From an uncultured Flavonifractor sp. (GTDB taxonomy: Bacteria > Bacillota > Clostridia > Oscillospirales > Oscillospiraceae), in assembly GCA_947346365.1 (NCBI GenBank), contig CANAAV010000005.1:29177-93176 (forward strand): a stretch of DNA of 64,000 bases, written 5' to 3'. Each line of letters starts with the position of its first letter. Position 1 is the stretch's first letter. The notes beneath the pieces are model-generated. The model had not been told where the DNA came from and ran no database searches. It saw only the letters and a list, made by a program, of their open reading frames with translations. A program made the translations under genes and the position numbers. This document shows positions 3,013 to 51,146 of the stretch, one piece after another.

Positions 3013-4206
3013 TTACCTGGCCTCAGGCGCCAGGATAATGAGCTGATCCACTGCGTTGAGATCCTCTGTATTGGCGGTAAATGCGGCGTTGGTGTTCTTC
3101 TCCACCCGGAAGGTCACGGTCTGCTCCGGCAGGTAGTCCAGCTTCTCCACCTGGGTGCGCAGCAGGTCCAGTACCATTCTGGCGTAGGCCACACAGTACG
3201 CGTCATACTGCGCCGGAGTGGCTGTGGCGAAAAAGCTGTCGGGGTAATTCACGTGGAACTGCTCGCTGACGCTGTCATACGCCGTGTCAAACAGCTGTAA
3301 CACATTGATGGGGCTGACCGTTACGTCCACTGTGTAATCACCGTTCCCCAGGGCCTTGGGGTTGGACACGGTAAACTTGGACTTGCTGTAAATGGTCTGG
3401 AAGAGGGTCATCAGCTGGTTGCTGATTTCGGGATCCAGCTTGTCGAAGGTCTCCTCCTCGGTGGTGCCGGTAATGCCGCTGAAGTCGCTGAAGATCTGGG
3501 CCTCCGCCATCACGTTCGTCAAATGGGCCGCCTCAGCGCTCTCCTTCGTGCCGCTCACCAGATCCAGATAGGCCTGGTCGTACTGGCCCAGATACAGCGC
3601 GTTCAAAAGTCCCTGTACATAGGTCACGGCAATCTCATCGGTAATTTCAAAAGGCTCGGTGGACAGGGTGACCACATGATTTTCCGCATTCCAGCCCACT
3701 TCCAGGCCCAGGGCGTTGGAGATGGCCCGGATGGGCAGATAGGTCGTGCCGTCCACGGCAAAAGGCTCCACTGTTTTGCCGCTGGCATCGGTCAGGGTCA
3801 GCGGTTTTCCGTCCAGAGTGACCTTAATGTCCGCGTAGTCGGCGCTCAGGCCGATGTTGATGGTGCGGCCCTTAGCGGGGTCCTGGGTGGTCTTGGTGGT
3901 CTTCTCTCCACCGGAGGTCAGGGCGACCGTGCTGGTTTCGGCAAGCCAGTCCACGCCCAGGCCCAGGGCGCCGGCCACCGCCCGGACGGGCAGATAAGTC
4001 GTGCCGTCCACGGCAAAGGGCTCCACAGTCTTTCCGTTGGCGTCGGTCAGCACCAGAAACTCTCCGTCCAACATCACCTTAATATCGGTGTAGTTGGCCT
4101 GGATGGGCCGAGAGCCGGTGACGGCGGCGGCGGGAACGGCCAGCGATGCGGCCAGCGCCAGGGACATAATCGCGGCGCCCATGCGCCGCAGGGGATGCTT
4201 GTGCAT
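3013..4206 (-). CDS. secreted protein with duplicated copper-amine-oxidase N-terminal-like (stalk) domains
   Basis: 397 aa; N-terminal signal peptide (MSLALAASLAVPAAAV); two repeats of TVEPFAVDGTTYLP(V/I)RA(V/I)..ALGL.V.W typical of Cu_amine_oxidN1 domains. Confidence 0.6.
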   Translation of the reverse strand: MHKHPLRRMGAAIMSLALAASLAVPAAAVTGSRPIQANYTDIKVMLDGEFLVLTDANGKTVEPFAVDGTTYLPVRAVAGALGLGVDWLAETSTVALTSGGEKTTKTTQDPAKGRTINIGLSADYADIKVTLDGKPLTLTDASGKTVEPFAVDGTTYLPIRAISNALGLEVGWNAENHVVTLSTEPFEITDEIAVTYVQGLLNALYLGQYDQAYLDLVSGTKESAEAAHLTNVMAEAQIFSDFSGITGTTEEETFDKLDPEISNQLMTLFQTIYSKSKFTVSNPKALGNGDYTVDVTVSPINVLQLFDTAYDSVSEQFHVNYPDSFFATATPAQYDAYCVAYARMVLDLLRTQVEKLDYLPEQTVTFRVEKNTNAAFTANTEDLNAVDQLIILAPEAR

Positions 4207-4450: not shown

Positions 4451-4888
4451 GTGGTCCTCAATTTGACCGAAACCCATAAGACCGTGAAAAATATCAAAGC
4501 GCGGGGTGCTTTCACGGTGAGCATAGCCGACGCCGCCCATATGGTAGAGGCAGACTATTTCGGAATAGAATCCGGAAACAGCTTCGTCGGCAAGTTTGCC
4601 CGCAGCGGCCTTACCGCCAGCAAGGCTGAAACGGTGGACGCCCCTGCTATCAATGAATTTCCGTTGTGTCTCGAGTGTGAATTTATTGCCTATCAGGACG
4701 GCGAATATGGCTACGGAGTCATTGGAAAGGTCATCAATATCACTGCGGACAAAAGCGTCATAGTAGATGGTCAGATCAATATGTCGCTGGTGAACGCCAT
4801 TGCCTTCGCCCCCTACACTCACGGATACTACAAGGTGACACAACGTGTTGGGGAAGCGTTTAAAGACGGCCTGAATTTGAAAAAATGA
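4451..4888 (+). CDS. flavin reductase-like FMN-binding domain protein
   Basis: 145 aa; GTG start; resemblance to flavin reductase-like split-barrel proteins. Confidence 0.55.
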   Translation: MVLNLTETHKTVKNIKARGAFTVSIADAAHMVEADYFGIESGNSFVGKFARSGLTASKAETVDAPAINEFPLCLECEFIAYQDGEYGYGVIGKVINITADKSVIVDGQINMSLVNAIAFAPYTHGYYKVTQRVGEAFKDGLNLKK

Positions 4889-4981
4889 AAATGACGCCCG
4901 CTGAAAAGCAAATGCTTTTCAGCGGGCGTTCGCTTCTTTATGGCAGCTGTCCCAAGTGCCTGCCCCCGCTGCAAATCTATC

Positions 4982-5401
4982 TCAGGGGAGATCATCCGCG
5001 TCAATCAGGATATTATCGGTGCCGTGCTCTTCAAATTCGGCAATATAGGCCTCAATGCGGCGGTTGAGCTCATCATAATTGCTCTCGTCGATTGGGGCGT
5101 CGTCCATATCCCGGCGGGCCAGATCCTCCGCCAAAATATCAAAAAAGACGTTGTTTTCATACTCCATTATGGCCTCGTGGATGCCGCCCTCCGCAAACGC
5201 GCGGGATGGGACCGTCTCCCCCTGCCACTCCTCTGCCAGTACGCCCATGCCCTCTTCTTTTGCTTTGGCAAACAGAAGGCTTTCCACATCGTCATAATCC
5301 TTAAAGCGGTCGTCGCCCCGGGTGGAGTTGAGCACCCAGTTGCCGATATAGGCCATATCCAGCAGGCGGCGGAATTGCTTGCCTGTCAATTCCAAATTCA
5401 T
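4982..5401 (-). CDS. hypothetical acidic protein
   Basis: 139 aa ORF; clean ATG start; no recognisable domain. Confidence 0.4.
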   Translation of the reverse strand: MNLELTGKQFRRLLDMAYIGNWVLNSTRGDDRFKDYDDVESLLFAKAKEEGMGVLAEEWQGETVPSRAFAEGGIHEAIMEYENNVFFDILAEDLARRDMDDAPIDESNYDELNRRIEAYIAEFEEHGTDNILIDADDLP

Positions 5402-5600
5402 AGGATAAAACCTCCTCGCTGTCCTTCGAGCTTACCCGCGCAGGCCGGCAGGCCCCGCTCTTTTTATATTATAATCACGCCGGCTGAAATGTCAAACAGG
5501 GGAAATTGGAAAATGGTGGGAGCGTTCTCCAAGTCTCTCTTGTGTTTTGAAGGATTTTCGCATATGATGGGTAGGAAACACAGTTTGGGAGGGAATTTCC

Positions 5601-6416
5601 TTGGACGCAAGACCCATCGGTATTTTTGACTCCGGCCTGGGCGGACTGACCACCGTGCGGGAGGTGCGCCGCCTTCTGCCGGGAGAAGAGCTTGTCTATT
5701 TCGGAGACACCGGGCGGGTGCCTTACGGCAGCCGCTCCAGAGACACCATCATCAAATACGCCCGGCAGGATGTGGCCTTCCTGCGGCAGTTTGATCTCAA
5801 AGCCGTCATAATCGCCTGCGGCACTGTGTCCACCACGGCACTGGATATACTCTGTCAGGAAAATTCCCTGCCGGTGCTGGGGGTGGTGGCTCCGGCGGCA
5901 CAGACGGCAGCCCGGCGGACCCGCAGCGGGCGTATCGGTCTGATCGGCACCCAGGCCACCATCCGCAGCGGGGCCTATGAGCGCCACATCGCCCAGGTCC
6001 GCCCGGACGCCCAGGTGTTCGCCCAGGCCTGTCCGCTCTTCGTCCCCCTGGTAGAAAACGGCCGCACCCGTCCGGGAGACGTGGTCATCGAGACGGTGGC
6101 CGCGGAATATCTGGCCCCTTTGAAGCAGGCGCAGGTAGACACGCTGGTGCTGGGTTGCACCCACTACCCGCTGCTGGAGGCGGTAATCCGCAGCAGCATG
6201 GGCCCCCAGGTGGAGCTGGTCAGCGCCGGCGCCGAGGGAGCCCGGGCCGCGGCGGAGCTGCTGCGCAGATCAGACGCCCTGGCTCCTCAGGACGCCCCGG
6301 GCGGCCTGAAGTGCTATGTCAGCGACCAGGTGGCCGACTTTTCCCGGCTGGCGTCGCTGTTTTTGGGCTGGGATGTAGCCGGACAGGTGGAGCATGTGGA
6401 CATTGACCGATATTAG
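5601..6416 (+). CDS. murI: glutamate racemase
   Basis: 271 aa; IGIFDSGLGGLT N-terminal motif and GCTHYPLL C-terminal motif; TTG start 7 nt after GGGAGGG. Confidence 0.9.
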   Translation: MDARPIGIFDSGLGGLTTVREVRRLLPGEELVYFGDTGRVPYGSRSRDTIIKYARQDVAFLRQFDLKAVIIACGTVSTTALDILCQENSLPVLGVVAPAAQTAARRTRSGRIGLIGTQATIRSGAYERHIAQVRPDAQVFAQACPLFVPLVENGRTRPGDVVIETVAAEYLAPLKQAQVDTLVLGCTHYPLLEAVIRSSMGPQVELVSAGAEGARAAAELLRRSDALAPQDAPGGLKCYVSDQVADFSRLASLFLGWDVAGQVEHVDIDRY

Positions 6417-6457
6417 ACCCTGTTTGAAAAATCCCGCCGGGAATCCTTCGGGTCATC

Positions 6458-6486
6458 TTTACAACGGGCGCCGCATTGTGTATAAT
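6458..6486 (+). promoter_or_regulatory. sigma-A-type promoter for the DUF1934-argS operon (-35 TTTACA, 17 bp spacer, -10 TATAAT)
   Basis: TTTACA at 6458-6463 and TATAAT at 6481-6486 upstream of the 6524 start. Confidence 0.45.
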
Positions 6487-6523
6487 AGCTTGCAATTCGC
6501 ATGGGCCGGAGGTAGCGCAGCAT

Positions 6524-6964
6524 ATGCACAACAACGTTATTATTTCCATTAAAGGGACGCAGTCCTTTGTGGGCATGGAGGCGGACGCCGTCGAGCTGGT
6601 CACAGAGGGCCGCCTGGACCCAGACGGCGATGGATACACCCTCAGTTATCAGGAGAGCGAGCTTACCGGGCTGGACGGCACTCTGACCACCTTCCAGATT
6701 GAGCCCGAGCGCATTACCCTGCTGCGGATGGGAGAGGTCAACTCCCAGATGGTCTTTCAGGAGGGGAAGCGGCATCTGTCCATGTACGACACACCCTACG
6801 GCGCCTTGTCGGTGGGCGTGCGCACCAAGCGGATGCGCGCTGCGCTCTCTCAGGCCGGCGGGGCCATTGAGATACAATACGCCATCGAAATCGACCACGC
6901 GGCGGCGGGAGAAAACCAGTTTCGCATTCAGGTAAAAGAGAAAACGCCTCTTCTGCGGTCATAA
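6524..6964 (+). CDS. DUF1934 (YwiB-like) protein
   Basis: about 146 aa from ATG 6524 (GGAGGTAG RBS); conserved position immediately upstream of argS as in Bacillus ywiB-argS. Confidence 0.6.
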   Translation: MHNNVIISIKGTQSFVGMEADAVELVTEGRLDPDGDGYTLSYQESELTGLDGTLTTFQIEPERITLLRMGEVNSQMVFQEGKRHLSMYDTPYGALSVGVRTKRMRAALSQAGGAIEIQYAIEIDHAAAGENQFRIQVKEKTPLLRS

Positions 6965-7038
6965 AGGCGGTATATTCGCGCTCCGCTTTCTGAACATCGC
7001 CGGTATTTTGGAAGCGGGCCAGAAAAAGGTGATAAAAT

Positions 7039-21657: not shown

Positions 21658-22818
21658 TTATTCTGCTCCCGCTTTTTGATTGTTCTCTCGCAGTGCTTTT
21701 GCCTGCTCCCGGTAGAGTTCCGCTCTGGCCTCCTCCACCAGGTCCTGCAAGTTCATGTCCTCCCACTCCACCTCCACCTGTCCGCTGTATCCATGCAGCC
21801 GCAGCCACAGCTCGCAGATGCGCTCCACCACGGGGGTCAGCCCCCGCCGTATGGCGGTAATCTCGCTGGTCATCATGTCGGCCTGCTGTGCGCTCATGCG
21901 TTCGGTAGAGGACCAGGACAGTCCCAGCAGGAAGGGTGGGATTCCTGTGCGGGCAACCAGCTGCTCCAAAATCTGCCGCACCGGCGTCTGGCTGTCCAGC
22001 ACCTGATTGTCCGCCCCGATAACTTTAATGTCCACGTCGCCTACGGCGACGAAATCCCGCACGCTGCCATCCTTTCCCGCCTGCATGGCGGCGGACCACT
22101 CCTGGGCAATCTGGCGGCTGCGCTCCTGGGCCCAAACGCCGTCCAGCTCGTCTCCGCCGGGCTTGTAGACCACGGCAAAGCGCACGTTCCCCATCCGTTC
22201 CCAGTTCATGCCTACCGCCTGATAAATTTTCAGCAGGATCTCGGTCAAAAACGGCATGGACCGCAGCAGGCTTACCCCATAGGGGTTGTCTGCCTCCGGC
22301 TGGAAGGGCGTAAACAACAGCAGCTCCTGCCAGGGCAGCTCTTTCAGGGCCGCGCCCTGCCTGGTGCACAGCGTAAACTGTAAGGGCGAATCTCCCTCTT
22401 TGATCTCCACATCCGCCGGATTGCCGCACAGTACGGCGGCGATCTCCTTTTTGGACCAGTCCAGCACAATCTCACCCACGCCGCGCCCACAGGTGAGCAT
22501 GGAGTCCAAATACTGGTCCAAAAAGGACTGGAGCCCCCGCTGTCCCCGTCCGGTGTTCACCTGGCGCAGGAAGCGGTCAAGTTCTTTCTGACCTCCCCCG
22601 TCCGCACAGCGGACCTGCACGCCGCCCGCCAGCCGGATCAGCTTCCAAATTGCCGCGTCCACCACCGGCACCGCCTCCCGGATGCTCCGATACAGCTGAA
22701 TCTCGCCGTTTTTCAGCGGCACATATCCGTCCAGTAGCCCAAAGGGATGCCGCTGTCCGCTCCGAATCTGCACGGCGCTCCCCGCCGCCGGGGCCTTCCT
22801 TTTGTTCCAAAATCCCAC
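21658..22818 (-). CDS. phage portal protein
   Basis: 386 aa; follows terminase large subunit; SPP1/PBSX-type portal features. Confidence 0.75.
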   Translation of the reverse strand: MGFWNKRKAPAAGSAVQIRSGQRHPFGLLDGYVPLKNGEIQLYRSIREAVPVVDAAIWKLIRLAGGVQVRCADGGGQKELDRFLRQVNTGRGQRGLQSFLDQYLDSMLTCGRGVGEIVLDWSKKEIAAVLCGNPADVEIKEGDSPLQFTLCTRQGAALKELPWQELLLFTPFQPEADNPYGVSLLRSMPFLTEILLKIYQAVGMNWERMGNVRFAVVYKPGGDELDGVWAQERSRQIAQEWSAAMQAGKDGSVRDFVAVGDVDIKVIGADNQVLDSQTPVRQILEQLVARTGIPPFLLGLSWSSTERMSAQQADMMTSEITAIRRGLTPVVERICELWLRLHGYSGQVEVEWEDMNLQDLVEEARAELYREQAKALRENNQKAGAE

Positions 22819-22833
22819 GTCTCTCCCTCCTAT

Positions 22834-24090
22834 TTAAAAGCGCCGCCGTTCGGCCGTCGCCGCCGCCAGGGCTCCTCCCTGCCGCCCTGCCGCCACCGTG
22901 GCGGCAAAATAGCGGATGTCGTCCATCGCGTGATCGTGCGCCTTTTTCACCCGGTCCCCCACGGCCCGCTCGTCCCAGCAGTACTGGGAAAATTCCCGGA
23001 TTGCGTCCGTACATCCCTGGCAGATCACCAGCCTGCCCTGCCGCAGCAGCTCTGCGGTCGTCCGTATGCCGGAGATCACGTCGTTTTCTGCCCGCGCCAC
23101 CCGCCAGCCTCTGCGGCGCAGCGTCTCAATAAAGCTGGCGGCCGAGGGGTCCACCACTGCCAGCTCTATCCTCCGCCCCCCTGCCAGCCGCTCCAAATCC
23201 TGCGCGTATTCTCCGTCTGTCTTTTGCCGCCCGTGGATTTTGGAGTCATAATAGTACTCCTTGACCCGGTACCACACCCCGTCCCGCTTCCCCCACAGCC
23301 CAAAGGAGGCGGGATTCACCGTGCCGTAGTCGCAGGAGACGCACCACCGCTCCAACTCCCCCTCTGGCGGCGGGCGCACATAGCGCTCGTCGAAAAAGTC
23401 GTACACTCTCCCCTCGGCGGCTGTCCATTCCCCCAGCACAAACCGCCGGAAGAAAGCCCCGCTGAAATTTCTCGCGTAGCGCTGAATCACCTCCGGCGGC
23501 AGCGCAGGATTGTCCTGCATGAAAAAGTGCAGGTACAGCGCCCCCCGTTCCTCGCTTTTCTGAATCCATTCCCGGTAAAACCAGTGCTCCGGCCCTTCCG
23601 GGTTGCAGGAAAACCACAACTTGCTCCCCTTTACCGAACACCGGGCGCAGGTCTGCTCCACAAAGGACCTGGGCATCAGCGCCACCTCGTCCAGCAGCGC
23701 CCCCGCCAGCGTAATCCCCTGAATCAGCGCGGCGCTCCCCTCATCCTTTCCTCCAAAAAGATAAAACGTGTTTTCCCGTCCTCCAAAGCGCACATCCAGC
23801 GTATTTTGGGCCGTCCGCTCCCTGCACGTAAATCCCAGCTCCCGCAGCGCCGGCAGCAGTCCGTACAGCAGATTGCGCCGCAGCGCCCCTATGGTCTTTC
23901 CGCACAGGGCAAAGCGCTGCGCGTGAAACCTGCGCATAGCCCAGCAGAAAAAGGAAAGACCGAGGCACAGGGTCTTCCCGCTGCGCACCGCCCCGTCACA
24001 GATTACGGCCTCCCGTCCAGAGGTCTCCGCCCCATCGCACCACCAGGTCAGCGCCAGCCGCTGTTTTTCTGAAAAGGCCTCAAACTCCAT
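22834..24090 (-). CDS. phage terminase large subunit (PBSX XtmB family)
   Basis: 418 aa; Walker A GAVRSGKT; terminase_6-type ATPase and nuclease halves. Confidence 0.85.
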   Translation of the reverse strand: MEFEAFSEKQRLALTWWCDGAETSGREAVICDGAVRSGKTLCLGLSFFCWAMRRFHAQRFALCGKTIGALRRNLLYGLLPALRELGFTCRERTAQNTLDVRFGGRENTFYLFGGKDEGSAALIQGITLAGALLDEVALMPRSFVEQTCARCSVKGSKLWFSCNPEGPEHWFYREWIQKSEERGALYLHFFMQDNPALPPEVIQRYARNFSGAFFRRFVLGEWTAAEGRVYDFFDERYVRPPPEGELERWCVSCDYGTVNPASFGLWGKRDGVWYRVKEYYYDSKIHGRQKTDGEYAQDLERLAGGRRIELAVVDPSAASFIETLRRRGWRVARAENDVISGIRTTAELLRQGRLVICQGCTDAIREFSQYCWDERAVGDRVKKAHDHAMDDIRYFAATVAAGRQGGALAAATAERRRF

Positions 24091-24433
24091 CCGTCCGCCC
24101 GTCTCCTGCCTTTCCCTCCAGAGCCCGGAAGAACTGCTCGGCCCGCTCGGCCTCCCCCTCTCCGCTCAGCGCAGCCAGCTTTTCCAGCGCCGCGATCCGG
24201 TCAACCAGCTTGATCTCCACCCCCCCGCTGGCGTTGCGCCTGAACTCCGCCAGCGCCCCCAGCTCCAGAGCGTCGATTCCCTTCATCTGCTCCGTATCCA
24301 GTCCGCCGTCCAAAAACGCCAGCTTTACCGCGTCGTTGACCCGGCAGTCTGCAATCCGCCGAATTCTGCACAGGGCCTGCCTGCGTCCATTTCTGCCCTT
24401 GGAATCCCCGTTCATCCTGTTCTCCCCCCTCAT
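24080..24433 (-). CDS. phage terminase small subunit (Terminase_2 / XtmA-like)
   Basis: 117 aa; KLVDRIAALEKL motif characteristic of the Terminase_2 family; overlaps start of large subunit. Confidence 0.6.
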   Translation of the reverse strand: MRGENRMNGDSKGRNGRRQALCRIRRIADCRVNDAVKLAFLDGGLDTEQMKGIDALELGALAEFRRNASGGVEIKLVDRIAALEKLAALSGEGEAERAEQFFRALEGKAGDGRTDGV

Positions 24434-24504: not shown

Positions 24505-24541
24505 TCAAAAAGCTGGCGCGGGCCCGGAATCTTTTCATTCC
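24505..24541 (-). terminator. strong stem-loop (15-bp stem) with minus-strand T-rich tail, directly upstream of the phage-like element
   Basis: GGCGCGGGCCCGGAAT-CTTTTC-ATTCCGGGCCCGCGC; on the minus strand followed by AGCTTTTTGAATTTTTTTG. Confidence 0.5.
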
Positions 24542-24668
24542 GGGCCCGCGCTAGCTTACGAAAAACCTCACTGAGCTCGCGCCCTCCGGCGCAAATCAAC
24601 GCAGCATCTGTTTATGAAATTGTTGTCAGTCCGCACCGTGCATACTTTTCTCTCTGCGGCCTATGCTA

Positions 24669-24806
24669 GGCCTTGTTTGAAGAATGGGAATATGCCCAAG
24701 GGCGAGGGATTTTTTCGGCTGGCAAGGGGTTTTGACGCAGGAATCCTGACGGATTTCAAGGAAAAACCCTGCCATTTGGACGTGTTAATAATTTTCAAAC
24801 AAGGCC
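24669..24806. repeat. MITE-like dispersed repeat, full copy A (TIR GGCCTTGTTTGAA / TTCAAACAAGGCC)
   Basis: about 138 bp; near-identical to 50890-51050; 13-16 bp terminal inverted repeats. Confidence 0.8.
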
Positions 24807-24875
24807 TAAACGGCACACAGCTCCGGCGCTCTGTCCACGGCCGGATATCAATACGCAGAAAGCGGTGTAATTTTC

Positions 24876-29568: not shown

Positions 29569-29684
29569 AATTACGCATCCTCTCCCCGCCAAACGGCCGC
29601 CTTCACTCCTATGTTTCTTTCCTTCCGGAATCTATTATAATGCCTGCCGGTCAAAGCCGCAAGCCTTGAAATCTCCGCCGTCCC

Positions 29685-29746
29685 TAAGCCTTGTTTGAAA
29701 ATGGTCCACACGTCCAAAAGGCGGGTCTTTTTCAGACTAGGCCTAA
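29685..29746. repeat. truncated, inverted copy of the MITE-like repeat (plus a further TIR-like fragment at 29661-29675)
   Basis: CTAAGCCTTGTTTGAAAATGG..CCACACGTCCAAAAGGCGGGTCTTTTTC is the reverse complement of the right end of copy B; ends in CTAGGCCTAA. Confidence 0.65.
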
Positions 29747-48735: not shown

Positions 48736-48785
48736 CGCCGTGCTGTCCCTCCCCTCTGCGCCAGTCAGGCGGATAGAACCGCCAT

Positions 48786-48820
48786 GGGACGTGTGAACAA
48801 TTTTCAACCAAGGCTTAAAC
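48786..48820. repeat. right-end fragment of the MITE-like repeat
   Basis: GGGACGTGTGAACAATTTTCAACCAAGGCTTAAAC matches the right ends of copies A and B; a further degenerate end (GATTTTCCGCCGGACAAGGCCTAAT) at 49046-49070. Confidence 0.6.
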
Positions 48821-48994: not shown

Positions 48995-49065
48995 TCCTCG
49001 GCTTTCTCCTGTGCTTGGCAATTGGCAGTATGCCCGACGGCGAAAGATTTTCCGCCGGACAAGGC

Positions 49066-49902
49066 CTAATAGGCCGCCACTACGCCGCCGTCGTTGGCGT
49101 ATACGGTGGACACGCCGCAGGTATCGCTGACCACCACTTCGCTGAACCGGCAGCGCTCCAGGGCCAAGTCCTTCAGATAAAAGGCCCGGTCCAGGCAGTT
49201 GCAGTGGGCAATGGCCAGGCGGCGGCCCACATGCTTTTCGTCCTCCGCCATAAAAGACACCATTTTGGACAGGGCCTGTCTTACCGACAGCGCCTGCCCC
49301 TTTTTACAGATTTCTCCCTCCCGGGTGGCCCCCATCAACAGCTTGATCTTCAGCGTGCTGGTCACGATATTCTGCAGCCGGGTCAGCCGCCCGTTTTTAC
49401 GCAGATTGTCCAGGGTCTCCAGCACAAAAAAGGTCTCCATTCCGCCGATATAGCGGGACGCCTCGCTGACCACCCCGGAAAACGGCATTCCGCTCTCCGC
49501 CAGATCCCTGATCTTCAGGGCCAGAGCCACTTCCCCGGCGGAGGCAGAACAGGAATTGAAAATATGCACATTGGCGTTTGGATGATCCTCCAGCCACATC
49601 AGCCGCGCCTGAGCGGCAGAGTTGTGGGAGCCAGACAGCAGCGCGGAGAGGGTAACCACATAGATGTCGTCTGCGCCGCAGTCAAAGGCCTGCATATACT
49701 CCACCGGCGAAGGGCAGGCGGTGTGGGGGGCGCTCTCGCACTCCCGCATCCTCCAGAGCAGCTCAGCCTGGTCAAAGGCGGCGTTGTCCAAAACCGCGTA
49801 CTCCCCCGCATGGATAGTCAGCGGTACGCTGAGAAAACAGCCTGTCTGGAGCTGGGCCGGCGTCAGATCGCAGCAGCTGTCGACGATGATTTTAAAGCTC
49901 AT
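49066..49902 (-). CDS. DegV family fatty-acid-binding protein
   Basis: 278 aa; MSFKIIVDSCCDL N-terminus typical of DegV/DUF194. Confidence 0.85.
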   Translation of the reverse strand: MSFKIIVDSCCDLTPAQLQTGCFLSVPLTIHAGEYAVLDNAAFDQAELLWRMRECESAPHTACPSPVEYMQAFDCGADDIYVVTLSALLSGSHNSAAQARLMWLEDHPNANVHIFNSCSASAGEVALALKIRDLAESGMPFSGVVSEASRYIGGMETFFVLETLDNLRKNGRLTRLQNIVTSTLKIKLLMGATREGEICKKGQALSVRQALSKMVSFMAEDEKHVGRRLAIAHCNCLDRAFYLKDLALERCRFSEVVVSDTCGVSTVYANDGGVVAAY

Positions 49903-50212: not shown

Positions 50213-50890
50213 ATGCGGCCTGATAACGATAAACGGCTCTACCTGGTAGACGGCTCCCCCGAAGTTGTCTACCTGAAAAACGTAGTGCATGACCCTGAGA
50301 TTGAGGTGGGCGTGCATACCTATTACCATGACGACCAAAAGGACCCCCGTGACTTTGTGAAGAACAACGTGCTCTACCACTTCCCCGGCGTGGGAGACCA
50401 CATCAAAATCGGCTCTTACTGCTCCATCGCCAGCGGAGTAAAATTTATGTGCTCTATCTGTCACCACGATCCCAGCTCTTTGTCCTGGTATCCCTTTGGC
50501 TGGCTTCACGAGCACTGGGATACTCTGGATTTTGACCGGGACTTTACCTGGGGCCACCGGGGCCAAGGCATCGAGGTGGGCAGCGACGTATGGATCGGCC
50601 GGGAGGCCGTTCTCATGCCCGGCGTGACGGTCGGCCACGGTGCCGCCATCGGCACCCGCAGTATCGTCACCCACGATGTTCCGCCCTACACCATTGTAGC
50701 CGGCGCCCCCGCCAAATTCATTAAGAAGCGCTTTGACGGCGCCACCATTGAACGGCTGCTGGCGCTCAAATGGTGGGAGCTGCCTGAGGAGGAGATCAAT
50801 ATTTTGTTGCCCTCCCTGGTGCACGGGGACCTGGACGGCGTTTTCCTGCGCAAAGCCATCTATGAGGCCGCCAAAAGCGTGATGCGCTAG
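50213..50890 (+). CDS. vat: Vat-family streptogramin A O-acetyltransferase (xenobiotic acetyltransferase, hexapeptide repeat)
   Basis: about 225 aa from ATG 50213 (GGAGGGGTG RBS); alignment by eye to Vat proteins: ILYHYP..KIG..CSI..GV, HR.DG.STYPF, DVWIG.DVVIMPGV.IG.GA, PY.I..G.PAK.IK.RFD..TI..LL..KWW. Confidence 0.8.
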   Translation: MRPDNDKRLYLVDGSPEVVYLKNVVHDPEIEVGVHTYYHDDQKDPRDFVKNNVLYHFPGVGDHIKIGSYCSIASGVKFMCSICHHDPSSLSWYPFGWLHEHWDTLDFDRDFTWGHRGQGIEVGSDVWIGREAVLMPGVTVGHGAAIGTRSIVTHDVPPYTIVAGAPAKFIKKRFDGATIERLLALKWWELPEEEINILLPSLVHGDLDGVFLRKAIYEAAKSVMR

Positions 50891-51050
50891 GCCTTGTTTG
50901 AAAAATGGGAATATGCCCAAGGGCGAGGGATTTTTTCAGCTGGCAAGGGGTTTTGACGCAGAAATCCTGCCGGATTTCAAGGAAAACCCCCGCCGTCCAG
51001 GCGGAAAAAGACCCGCCATTTGGGCGTGTGAACAATTTTCAAACAAGGCC
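50890..51050. repeat. MITE-like dispersed repeat, full copy B (161 bp, with 25-bp internal insertion relative to copy A)
   Basis: starts at last base of vat stop; TIR GGCCTTGTTTGAA/TTCAAACAAGGCC; about 90% identical to copy A outside the insertion CGCCGTCCAGGCGGAAAAAGACCCG. Confidence 0.8.
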
Positions 51051-51103
51051 TAGTCCCGGCCTCCCCTCTATTCTAGCGCTCCAAAGGTTTTAAAACCATC
51101 TCC

Positions 51104-51146
51104 CCCGCGGCGTGCCCGTAAACCGGGACCTGCCGCGGGATTTTTT
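51104..51146 (+). terminator. intrinsic terminator downstream of vat
   Basis: CCCGCGGC..(20 nt)..GCCGCGGG followed by TTTTTT. Confidence 0.6.

Follow-up and report, generated by a model that had tools for sequence, protein, structure and literature searches.

A short TA-duplicating repeat with a conserved core hairpin in Oscillospiraceae genomes is probably a non-autonomous DNA transposon

The ERIC/YPAL repeats of enterobacteria and yersiniae are intergenic imperfect palindromes of 120–170 nt that are flanked by TA, are found across genera and form long hairpins when transcribed, and no transposase is known for them. RUP in Streptococcus pneumoniae, Correia in Neisseria and Nezha in cyanobacteria are TA-duplicating MITEs (miniature inverted-repeat transposable elements) that have been linked to IS630/Tc1-mariner. 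The element examined here is a 161-nt repeat in a 64,000-nt stretch of DNA, hereafter the window, from an uncultured Flavonifractor sp. (GenBank assembly GCA_947346365.1; contig CANAAV010000005.1, positions 29177 to 93176). In habit it appears closest to ERIC/YPAL and the TA-duplicating MITEs, and its copies are probably those of a MITE, i.e. of a non-autonomous DNA transposon.

With ERIC/YPAL, as commonly described, the element shares a palindrome over its whole length, an intergenic location and TA flanks, but its host belongs to the Clostridia rather than the Proteobacteria, its length is 161 nt, and its core is held in common with sister elements that have other termini and duplications. 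RUP, Correia and Nezha are like it in being 100–160 bp long, in bearing terminal inverted repeats, in duplicating TA, in reaching a high copy number and in giving transcripts that form hairpins. However, the target here is Y-TA-R, the terminus is IS5-like, there are sisters with 3- and 4-bp duplications, and no IS630-like gene was found in 1.83 Mb of sequence flanking copies of the family. A further likeness is to the IS427 group of the IS5 family, with its 2-bp duplication and inverted repeats of 13–21 bp, and the terminus GGCCTTGTTTGAA resembles the IS903 repeat GGCTTTGTTGAA; the 2-, 3- and 4-bp duplications of the sisters mirror the IS5-family subgroups. Neither a transposase gene nor an 800–1000-bp element with these ends was found, however, and the membership of a parent element in this group is one that we infer. 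REPINs and BIMEs are also extragenic strand-specific hairpins with compensatory changes, but they have a conserved 5' tetranucleotide and lack long perfect terminal repeats and target duplications, whereas the element here duplicates its target. No RAYT-like gene was present near any copy.

Two full copies are carried by the window, both on the plus strand. Copy B (50890–51050; 161 nt from GGCC to GGCC) is canonical and full-length and extends over 50888–51052 when the flanking TA on either side (50888–50889 and 51051–51052) is included, and copy A (24669–24806; 138 nt; 24667–24808 with flanking TA) has perfect termini and a 23-nt internal deletion. Both start with GGCCTTGTTTGAA and end with TTCAAACAAGGCC, and they share 93.4% identity over aligned positions (94% over a gap-free 109 nt). 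An earlier sequence-only reading of the window had placed two full copies with perfect termini at these positions, which is correct, the inverted ends being exact over 13 nt. It had also described a 25-bp insert in copy B, but the difference is 23 nt and is a deletion in copy A, which is flanked by short GGAAAA repeats and forms a 23-column gap against 114 relatives in the alignment. The 13-mer GGCCTTGTTTGAA has four perfect matches in the window (24669 and 50890 on the plus strand, 24794 and 51038 on the minus strand) and 13 with up to two mismatches, where 1.95 are expected and none of 100 shuffles reached 13. A pattern that requires both termini recovered exactly copies A and B, with 0 expected. 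Each of the two is one long imperfect palindrome with halves that are 72% complementary; the open reading frames that run across them are spurious overlaps, and the element has no coding capacity.

A search of one genome for each bacterial species for the two termini at a spacing of 108–138 nt gave at least 110 loci. After removal of duplicates, the non-redundant set contained 116 copies including the two in the window, so that the family has at least 116 members in total. Among the matches listed, copies were found in 45 assemblies, dominated by Oscillospiraceae according to the record titles, and the hosts were Oscillibacter, Flavonifractor, Pseudoflavonifractor, Intestinimonas, Lawsonibacter, Pelethomonas and unnamed Oscillospiraceae, together with one Acutalibacter metagenome-assembled genome (MAG) and one small contig binned as Eisenbergiella. 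At least 33 copies were present in the mouse-gut MAG MGBC115181 and at least 10 in Oscillibacter sp. 1-3, and the flanks are unrelated, in keeping with the dispersed, high-copy family that had been predicted from five occurrences in the window. The distance between the pattern ends was 159 nt in 69 of the 116 listed copies and 158 nt in 23 (range 136–162 nt). As this modal length is that of copy B, B represents the canonical form and the gap in A is a deletion. The median pairwise identity of the listed copies is only 73%, indicating an old and diverse family. Its terminal inverted repeats are perfect over 13–17 bp, GGCCTTGTTTGAA(AA), with little or no variation at 14 terminal base pairs, 12 of which were imposed by the search pattern.

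Scans of viral contigs with 15-mers and 17-mers of the terminus gave single matches at chance level, and one contig, L036, has a real copy. Two listed matches depart from the general picture. One copy lies on the 2.6-kb contig binned as Eisenbergiella (L210; a Lachnospiraceae MAG), which could reflect mis-binning or transfer. A locus in Candidatus Acutalibacter pullicola (L181) has the family's termini around an unrelated interior, and lacks the flanking TA on one side.

In the orientation of the element, the flanks read Y-TA before the first GGCC and TA-R after the last. On either side, 108 of the 116 listed copies have TA; 111 have Y at –1 and 104 have R at +1, and the composition beyond these positions is random. 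As the 4-mers to the left and right are equal in 17 of the 116, which is about the level of chance, the duplication is one of 2 bp and not of 4. Paralogous empty and filled sites were provided by a second repeat family in the same genomes, uninterrupted copies of which read GTTGATTTAATCAGTGC or GTTGATTAAATCAGTGC. Three interrupted copies (L172, L218 and L166) read GTTGATT-TA-[element]-TA-ATCAGTGC and a fourth (L139) reads GTTGAT-TA-[element]-TA-AATCAGTGC, and what the filled sites have over the empty ones is exactly one TA and the element. Members of different subfamilies were inserted, and not all in one orientation, indicating several independent insertions. The element thus inserts into TTAA of the second repeat with duplication of TA, and has done so repeatedly. 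A check for target-site duplications, which had been proposed with the initial description, therefore returned an exact TA duplication. An orthologous empty site (L213 compared with L204) was too diverged for the duplication to be read.

The second repeat is 159 nt long with termini GGAAGCACTGATTAAATC and is flanked by 4-bp duplications (TTAA, TAAA or CTAA), and it has the core hairpin described below in common with the studied element. Copies are located at L139:7346–7504, L196:4293–4451, L167:6300–6458 and L199:5365–5523, among others. Its terminal TTAA is a recurrent target of the studied element, giving nested composites of 322 nt.

The element is short and non-coding, has terminal inverted repeats, duplicates TA and is present in many dispersed copies with unrelated flanks. 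As the TA duplication is exact at empty and filled sites, it is likely that the element is a MITE that moves in trans. Its terminal repeats would be bound by a transposase from another genomic locus, which would insert the unit at Y-TA-R sites with the duplication of TA seen here. Enzymes of the IS630 type likewise duplicate TA, their sites being CTAG or NTAN, and within the IS5 family IS1031 makes a 3-bp TNA duplication. Though the TA duplication fits the IS427 type (2 bp) and the IS630/Tc1-mariner type alike, sister classes with 3- and 4-bp duplications fit the range of the IS5 family and not that of IS630, and the mobilising enzyme is therefore most probably an IS5-family DDE transposase of the IS427 type, with the IS630/Tc1-mariner type as the alternative. 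Among captured elements, repeats are of 2 bp in the IS427 group, mostly of 4 bp in the IS5 group (two of three listed) and of 9 bp in the IS903 group (PMC3281130, Table 2). The IS903 inverted repeat and its 9-bp duplication were first confirmed on a copy annotated in E. coli. The terminus of the element agrees with this repeat at 14 of 19 positions, a score reached by 4 of 5000 shuffles; this is a resemblance and not proof.

Abutment to stop codons, which had been noticed for copies in the window, proved to be right and general. For 43 of the 116 listed copies (37%), the flanking TA and the first G of the element make up the TAG that closes an open frame of 100 codons or more; this happens at the left end in 24 of them and at the right end in 19. 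In copy B this is the stop codon (50888–50890) of the upstream hexapeptide acetyltransferase gene, and in copy E, a degenerate copy described below, the C at the end of the element and the adjoining TA (49066–49068) form the TAG stop of the degV gene on the minus strand. Because the element begins with G, a TAA or TAG stop whose TA it enters would be rebuilt as TAG and the protein left unchanged, and copies would accumulate on stop codons for this reason. As Y-TA-R holds TAA or TAG on both strands, the placement is explained without invoking a function. For annotation, a TAG stop followed by GCCTTGTTTGAA can serve as a marker of insertion.

The interior of the element forms a hairpin. For the 116 listed copies, RNAalifold predicted 45 base pairs, 31 of them with compensatory changes. 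The apex stem differs by subfamily (AATCC/GGATT, GCGGGC/GCCCGG or CAATAC/GTATTG, the first two with the loop TGAC in common), the spacers beside it co-vary (AAATTTT/AAAATTT, GATTTGA/TCAAATC and AAAAATT/AATTTTT), and the unpaired internal-loop motifs CAAGG and CGCAG are constant while the stems vary. In 38 representatives, 92.9% of cells pair, compared with 72.8% after shuffling (0 of 500 shuffles reached the observed value) and at most 52.5% with slid partners, and both sides have changed in 19 of the 21 pairs of an 83-nt core. In copy B this core is at 50931–51013, on the plus strand only (covariance model R1; 77.3 bits, E = 1.6e-18), and in copy A, where part of it is gone, the match (24710–24792) scores only 49.3 bits. 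In the window the core model found only these two copies; in genome loci totalling 736 kb it found 124 sites, almost all of them matched on a single strand. Conversely, nearly all copies chosen by the termini and their spacing hold the core, the exceptions being L181 and L168, which have no match and interiors that align poorly; as these copies were picked by the termini and spacing and not by the core, this converse test is unbiased. The initial suggestion that the repeat might be a structured element was thus partly right, in that there is a core hairpin with strong covariation and a strand bias, but the assignment as a MITE stands beside it.

The core is also associated with other ends. A pattern for the core only was scanned against metagenomes and gave 104 listed sites with enough flanking sequence; as a set selected by the core, these sites reveal that many termini occur with it and not how common it is. 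In a first pass, 23 sites were assigned to the studied element (class F1), 11 to class F2 and 24 to class F3, leaving 46 unclassified. F1, with termini GGCCTTGTTTGAA, has the TA duplication in 14 of 21 cases in the metagenome set. F2, of 159 nt and ending in GGAAGCACTGAT, has a 4-bp duplication (TTAA, TAAA or CTAA) that is identical on both sides in 10 of 11, and F3, ending in (A)GAAGCTGTATTC, has a 3-bp duplication (TAA, TTA or TGA) in 17 of 24. A looser re-scan assigned seven sites to F4 (GAGCCTGTTTAA; 3-bp duplication in 4 of 7) and two to a fifth class, and the remaining sites include more than 10 other termini, mostly starting TA-G, and two loci that recur in many samples. Core-bearing elements are 159–164 nt long throughout. 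F1 is thus one branch of a wider group of ~160-nt hairpin elements in gut Clostridia. As the length of the duplication tracks the class of the terminus, and different lengths point to different transposases, the data suggest that a single lineage of such elements has exchanged its ends several times and so made use of different transposases.

The two recurrent loci have nearly identical flanks in many metagenome samples, several of them labelled human gut, and lack recognisable TA-flanked termini. One was recovered as L264, L283, L290, L316, L324, L343, L346, L348, L350, L368 and L370, and the other as L274, L276, L288, L291, L321, L378 and L380; either could be an old copy that is fixed in an abundant species, or one that has been domesticated. 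A core element with a third kind of terminus (AGAATCTGTATTC; L257:1457–1626) is located directly after a stop codon in the 154-kb Subdoligranulum variabile plasmid OY725836.1 (57465–57550), and this core-only match was the sole one in the plasmid collection (PLSDB), the phage records giving none. The possibility that the core acts as a guide RNA, with the internal loops pairing with the element's own ends, was rejected because the loops are unchanged when the termini change. An integron attC site was also discarded, as the core-site consensus is absent and the copies are dispersed beside housekeeping genes.

Several observations weigh against transposition of a MITE as a full account. In a normal MITE family one would expect the opposite of a conserved core with variable termini. 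The plus strand, as defined by the core, folds better than the minus strand in 113 of the 116 listed copies (mean –87.9 and –70.2 kcal/mol, respectively), and this strand bias in folding is not explained by double-stranded cut-and-paste. A search of genome loci (0.9 Mb), metagenome loci (0.8 Mb), PLSDB and phage records found no autonomous element with GGCCTTGTTTGAA termini, and a metagenome pattern that combined the terminus with an IS5-type OrfA motif (D..W...PLLP) gave 0 matches. Searches of the 1.83 Mb of flanks using tblastn with IS630, IS903, IS5 InsH and IS608 TnpA gave nothing at E < 0.01, only the IS903 query being taken from an annotated (E. coli) record and the IS630, IS5 and IS608 queries being entered by hand. 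Nor was presence/absence polymorphism seen for the window's own copies, as look-ups with DegV, CmpB and YmdB returned same-species contigs only and no empty site. A generic search of the metagenome loci for inverted repeats with T(N)A duplications also gave 0. The only pairs of termini at the spacing of an insertion sequence (IS) were at L222, where two MITE copies surround a glycosyltransferase gene, and a false positive at L205.

The L222 locus (4630–7027; Oscillibacter sp. 1-3, NZ_KE159703.1) contains two inverted copies of the element, the outer ends of which are identical over 25 nt and are flanked by TA on either side. They bracket a family-4 glycosyltransferase gene and a gene for a 260-aa protein with no Pfam match, in a layout like that of a composite transposon.

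The bias in folding was seen in several ways. For copy B, the folding energy was –90.4 kcal/mol on the plus strand (z –10.3) and –79.9 on the minus strand, and for copy A –63.2 (z –6.8) and –49.1, respectively. In a strand-neutral self-alignment there were 660 G-T and 372 A-C mismatches, with G-T in excess in 95 elements and A-C in 12. When only the arms of 33 metagenome representatives (arms less than 80% alike) were scored, the arms being outside the search pattern, the plus strand was more stable in 29 and less so in 4 (–52.9 vs –41.6 kcal/mol; sign test 1e-5). Within subfamilies, variants shared between copies comprised 88 G-T and 31 A-C cells, an excess that would be expected from better propagation of source copies in which one strand is foldable. 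Relative to neighbouring genes, orientation showed 19 copies in the same and 17 in the opposite direction in tandem contexts.

A folded single strand of DNA or RNA that moves as a hairpin, in the manner of REPIN/RAYT or of IS200/IS605-HUH elements, would account for the strand preference of the whole copies, of the arms and of the G-T mismatches, for stems that covary around fixed CAAGG and CGCAG motifs, and for a core and length that are kept while the termini are highly variable. The apparent duplication would then be the TA of the target plus a TA borne by the element, which in F1 alone is indistinguishable from a true TA duplication. This view is weakened by the 4-bp flanks of F2 and the 3-bp flanks of F3, which vary between copies and are thus true duplications rather than element ends. 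The terminal inverted repeats are perfect over 13–17 bp, orientation relative to flanking genes, a rough proxy for the direction of replication, is 30 to 26, and neither a Y1/HUH transposase in the 1.83 Mb of flanks (searched with the IS608 query entered by hand) nor a GTAG-type REP signature was found. Such single-strand movement is therefore unlikely, as is the reading of the TA as half element-borne. Of the named forms, a palindromic element derived from IS200/IS605 was rejected on its perfect terminal repeats, duplications and lack of orientation bias, and a RAYT-dependent REP or REPIN because duplications were demonstrated, the flanks are Y-TA, and the genes between inverted pairs (LysR, lipoate ligase, sigma factor, SDR and glycosyltransferase) are ordinary.

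A regulatory RNA of the host that is merely copied around, whether it stabilises 3'-UTRs, terminates transcription or is a small RNA gene, might be proposed from the great stability of the hairpins of copies A and B, the frequent position directly after stop codons and the covariation of the core. However, the stop-codon placement follows from the TA target, and the copies show no preference in orientation with respect to the upstream gene, either at stop codons (24 and 19) or in tandem contexts. No promoter was found, terminator-like sites are no commoner than in shuffles, and there is no Rfam family, the window having 0 matches at the gathering threshold and further searches giving only sub-threshold matches to generic hairpins. 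With random orientation, no promoter and terminators at the level of shuffles, an RNA function tied to the neighbours is improbable, and variants that break pairs within subfamilies indicate inserted copies that are drifting; a host RNA of this kind is thus very unlikely. The window, which has only two full copies, one of them near phage genes, might suggest that the repeat arose by local duplication or is what remains of the ends of a known insertion sequence. The copies with unrelated flanks in 45 assemblies, the lack of an IS-sized pair of termini and the single core-only match in the plasmid and phage collections make this practically negligible, and the suggestion of a MITE-like element, which had been made conditional on these two points, is supported.

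The interior of the element may have a history of its own. Tentatively, the 83-nt core could be a strand-specific module of RNA or single-stranded DNA that is older than the ends, the latter having been exchanged to parasitise different IS5-family transposases; the two internal loops with fixed motifs lie between covarying stems, and selection would have kept one strand foldable. If so, this would be a modular mobile element conserved in its interior and not in its ends. A search of full-text literature found no paper with these termini and none linking MITEs to these genera, and the combination of a conserved structured interior with interchangeable ends was not found described. This inversion of the usual MITE pattern makes these elements a tractable system in which to ask how a non-autonomous element comes to change its transposase partner, and whether hairpin formation is itself selected during transposition. 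Most of what is known of the Oscillospiraceae, which are abundant commensals of the gut, comes from draft assemblies, in which a 160-bp repeat in tens of copies breaks contigs, and the repeat may also mediate rearrangements.

Three decayed copies were found in the window in addition to A and B. The truncated or inverted fragments reported previously do exist, but their nature and bounds required correction. Copy C (29687–29743; 57 nt; 29685–29745 with TA) is not a mere fragment of 29661–29746 but an internally deleted copy on the minus strand, with the left terminus fused to the right arm. Both its termini are still recognisable (12/13 and 11/13, starting at 29687 and 29731), TA is present at both sides, and it is 84% identical to the right arm of B and 81% to that of A; it is located between the divergent ymdB and merR-like genes. 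Copy D (48761–48815; 48761–48817 with TA) is a right-arm remnant on the plus strand, upstream of recJ, that ends with TTCAACCAAGGCT followed by TA. Copy E (element 49009–49066; 49009–49068 with TA) is degenerate and internally deleted, lies on the minus strand with the GGCC terminus extending to 49066, and was matched by BLAST over 49020–49065.

Same-species contigs came from MAGs at NCBI, from ENA and from Logan, mouse gut being the label of at least one, and every one that spans the site of a copy carries the copy at equal spacing; the window copies therefore look old and fixed in the species. Exact-protein look-ups for the acetyltransferase and YabP found no record. Several same-species contigs terminate within copy A, as expected of a repeat.

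The neighbours of the window copies are ordinary genes of a spore-former, namely those for CmpB-like and SbcCD-like proteins, YmdB, a MerR-like regulator, RecJ, DegV, the hexapeptide acetyltransferase, YabP and YabQ, and the window has 0 tRNA genes. Genes for a phage portal and large terminase and a small open reading frame (21658–24433) are immediately to the left of copy A, an arrangement that recurs in other same-species contigs, indicating that this prophage-like region is conserved in the species. Clustering of the repeats next to the accessory element, as previously proposed, holds for copy A, which is ~230 bp from the terminase and portal genes, but not for the other copies. Terminator-like GC-rich hairpins with T runs are found just outside A (24516–24551, minus strand; from a scan) and B (about 51100–51145; by eye), and transcription of the neighbouring genes probably ends there and not within the elements. 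The longest direct repeat in the window consists of two copies of 163 nt (3681–3843 and 3936–4098; 78% identical, 255 nt apart), which are unrelated to the element.

In the same-species MAG GCA_948591275.1 (contig CAPCJO010000010.1; L233 and L241), the acetyltransferase gene was found directly joined to the CmpB-like gene. The junction is a hybrid element made of the left part of B and the right part of A, with the crossover in a 23-nt identical stretch (joining within window 24666–51053). The contig is 26,236 bp long, close to the spacing of 26,221 from A to B, and by calculation its ends overlap within relA. The 26.2-kb segment between the direct copies A and B therefore takes the form of a circular path, which may represent an excised circle or a tandem duplication, either of them arising by recombination of the copies, or else an assembly loop.

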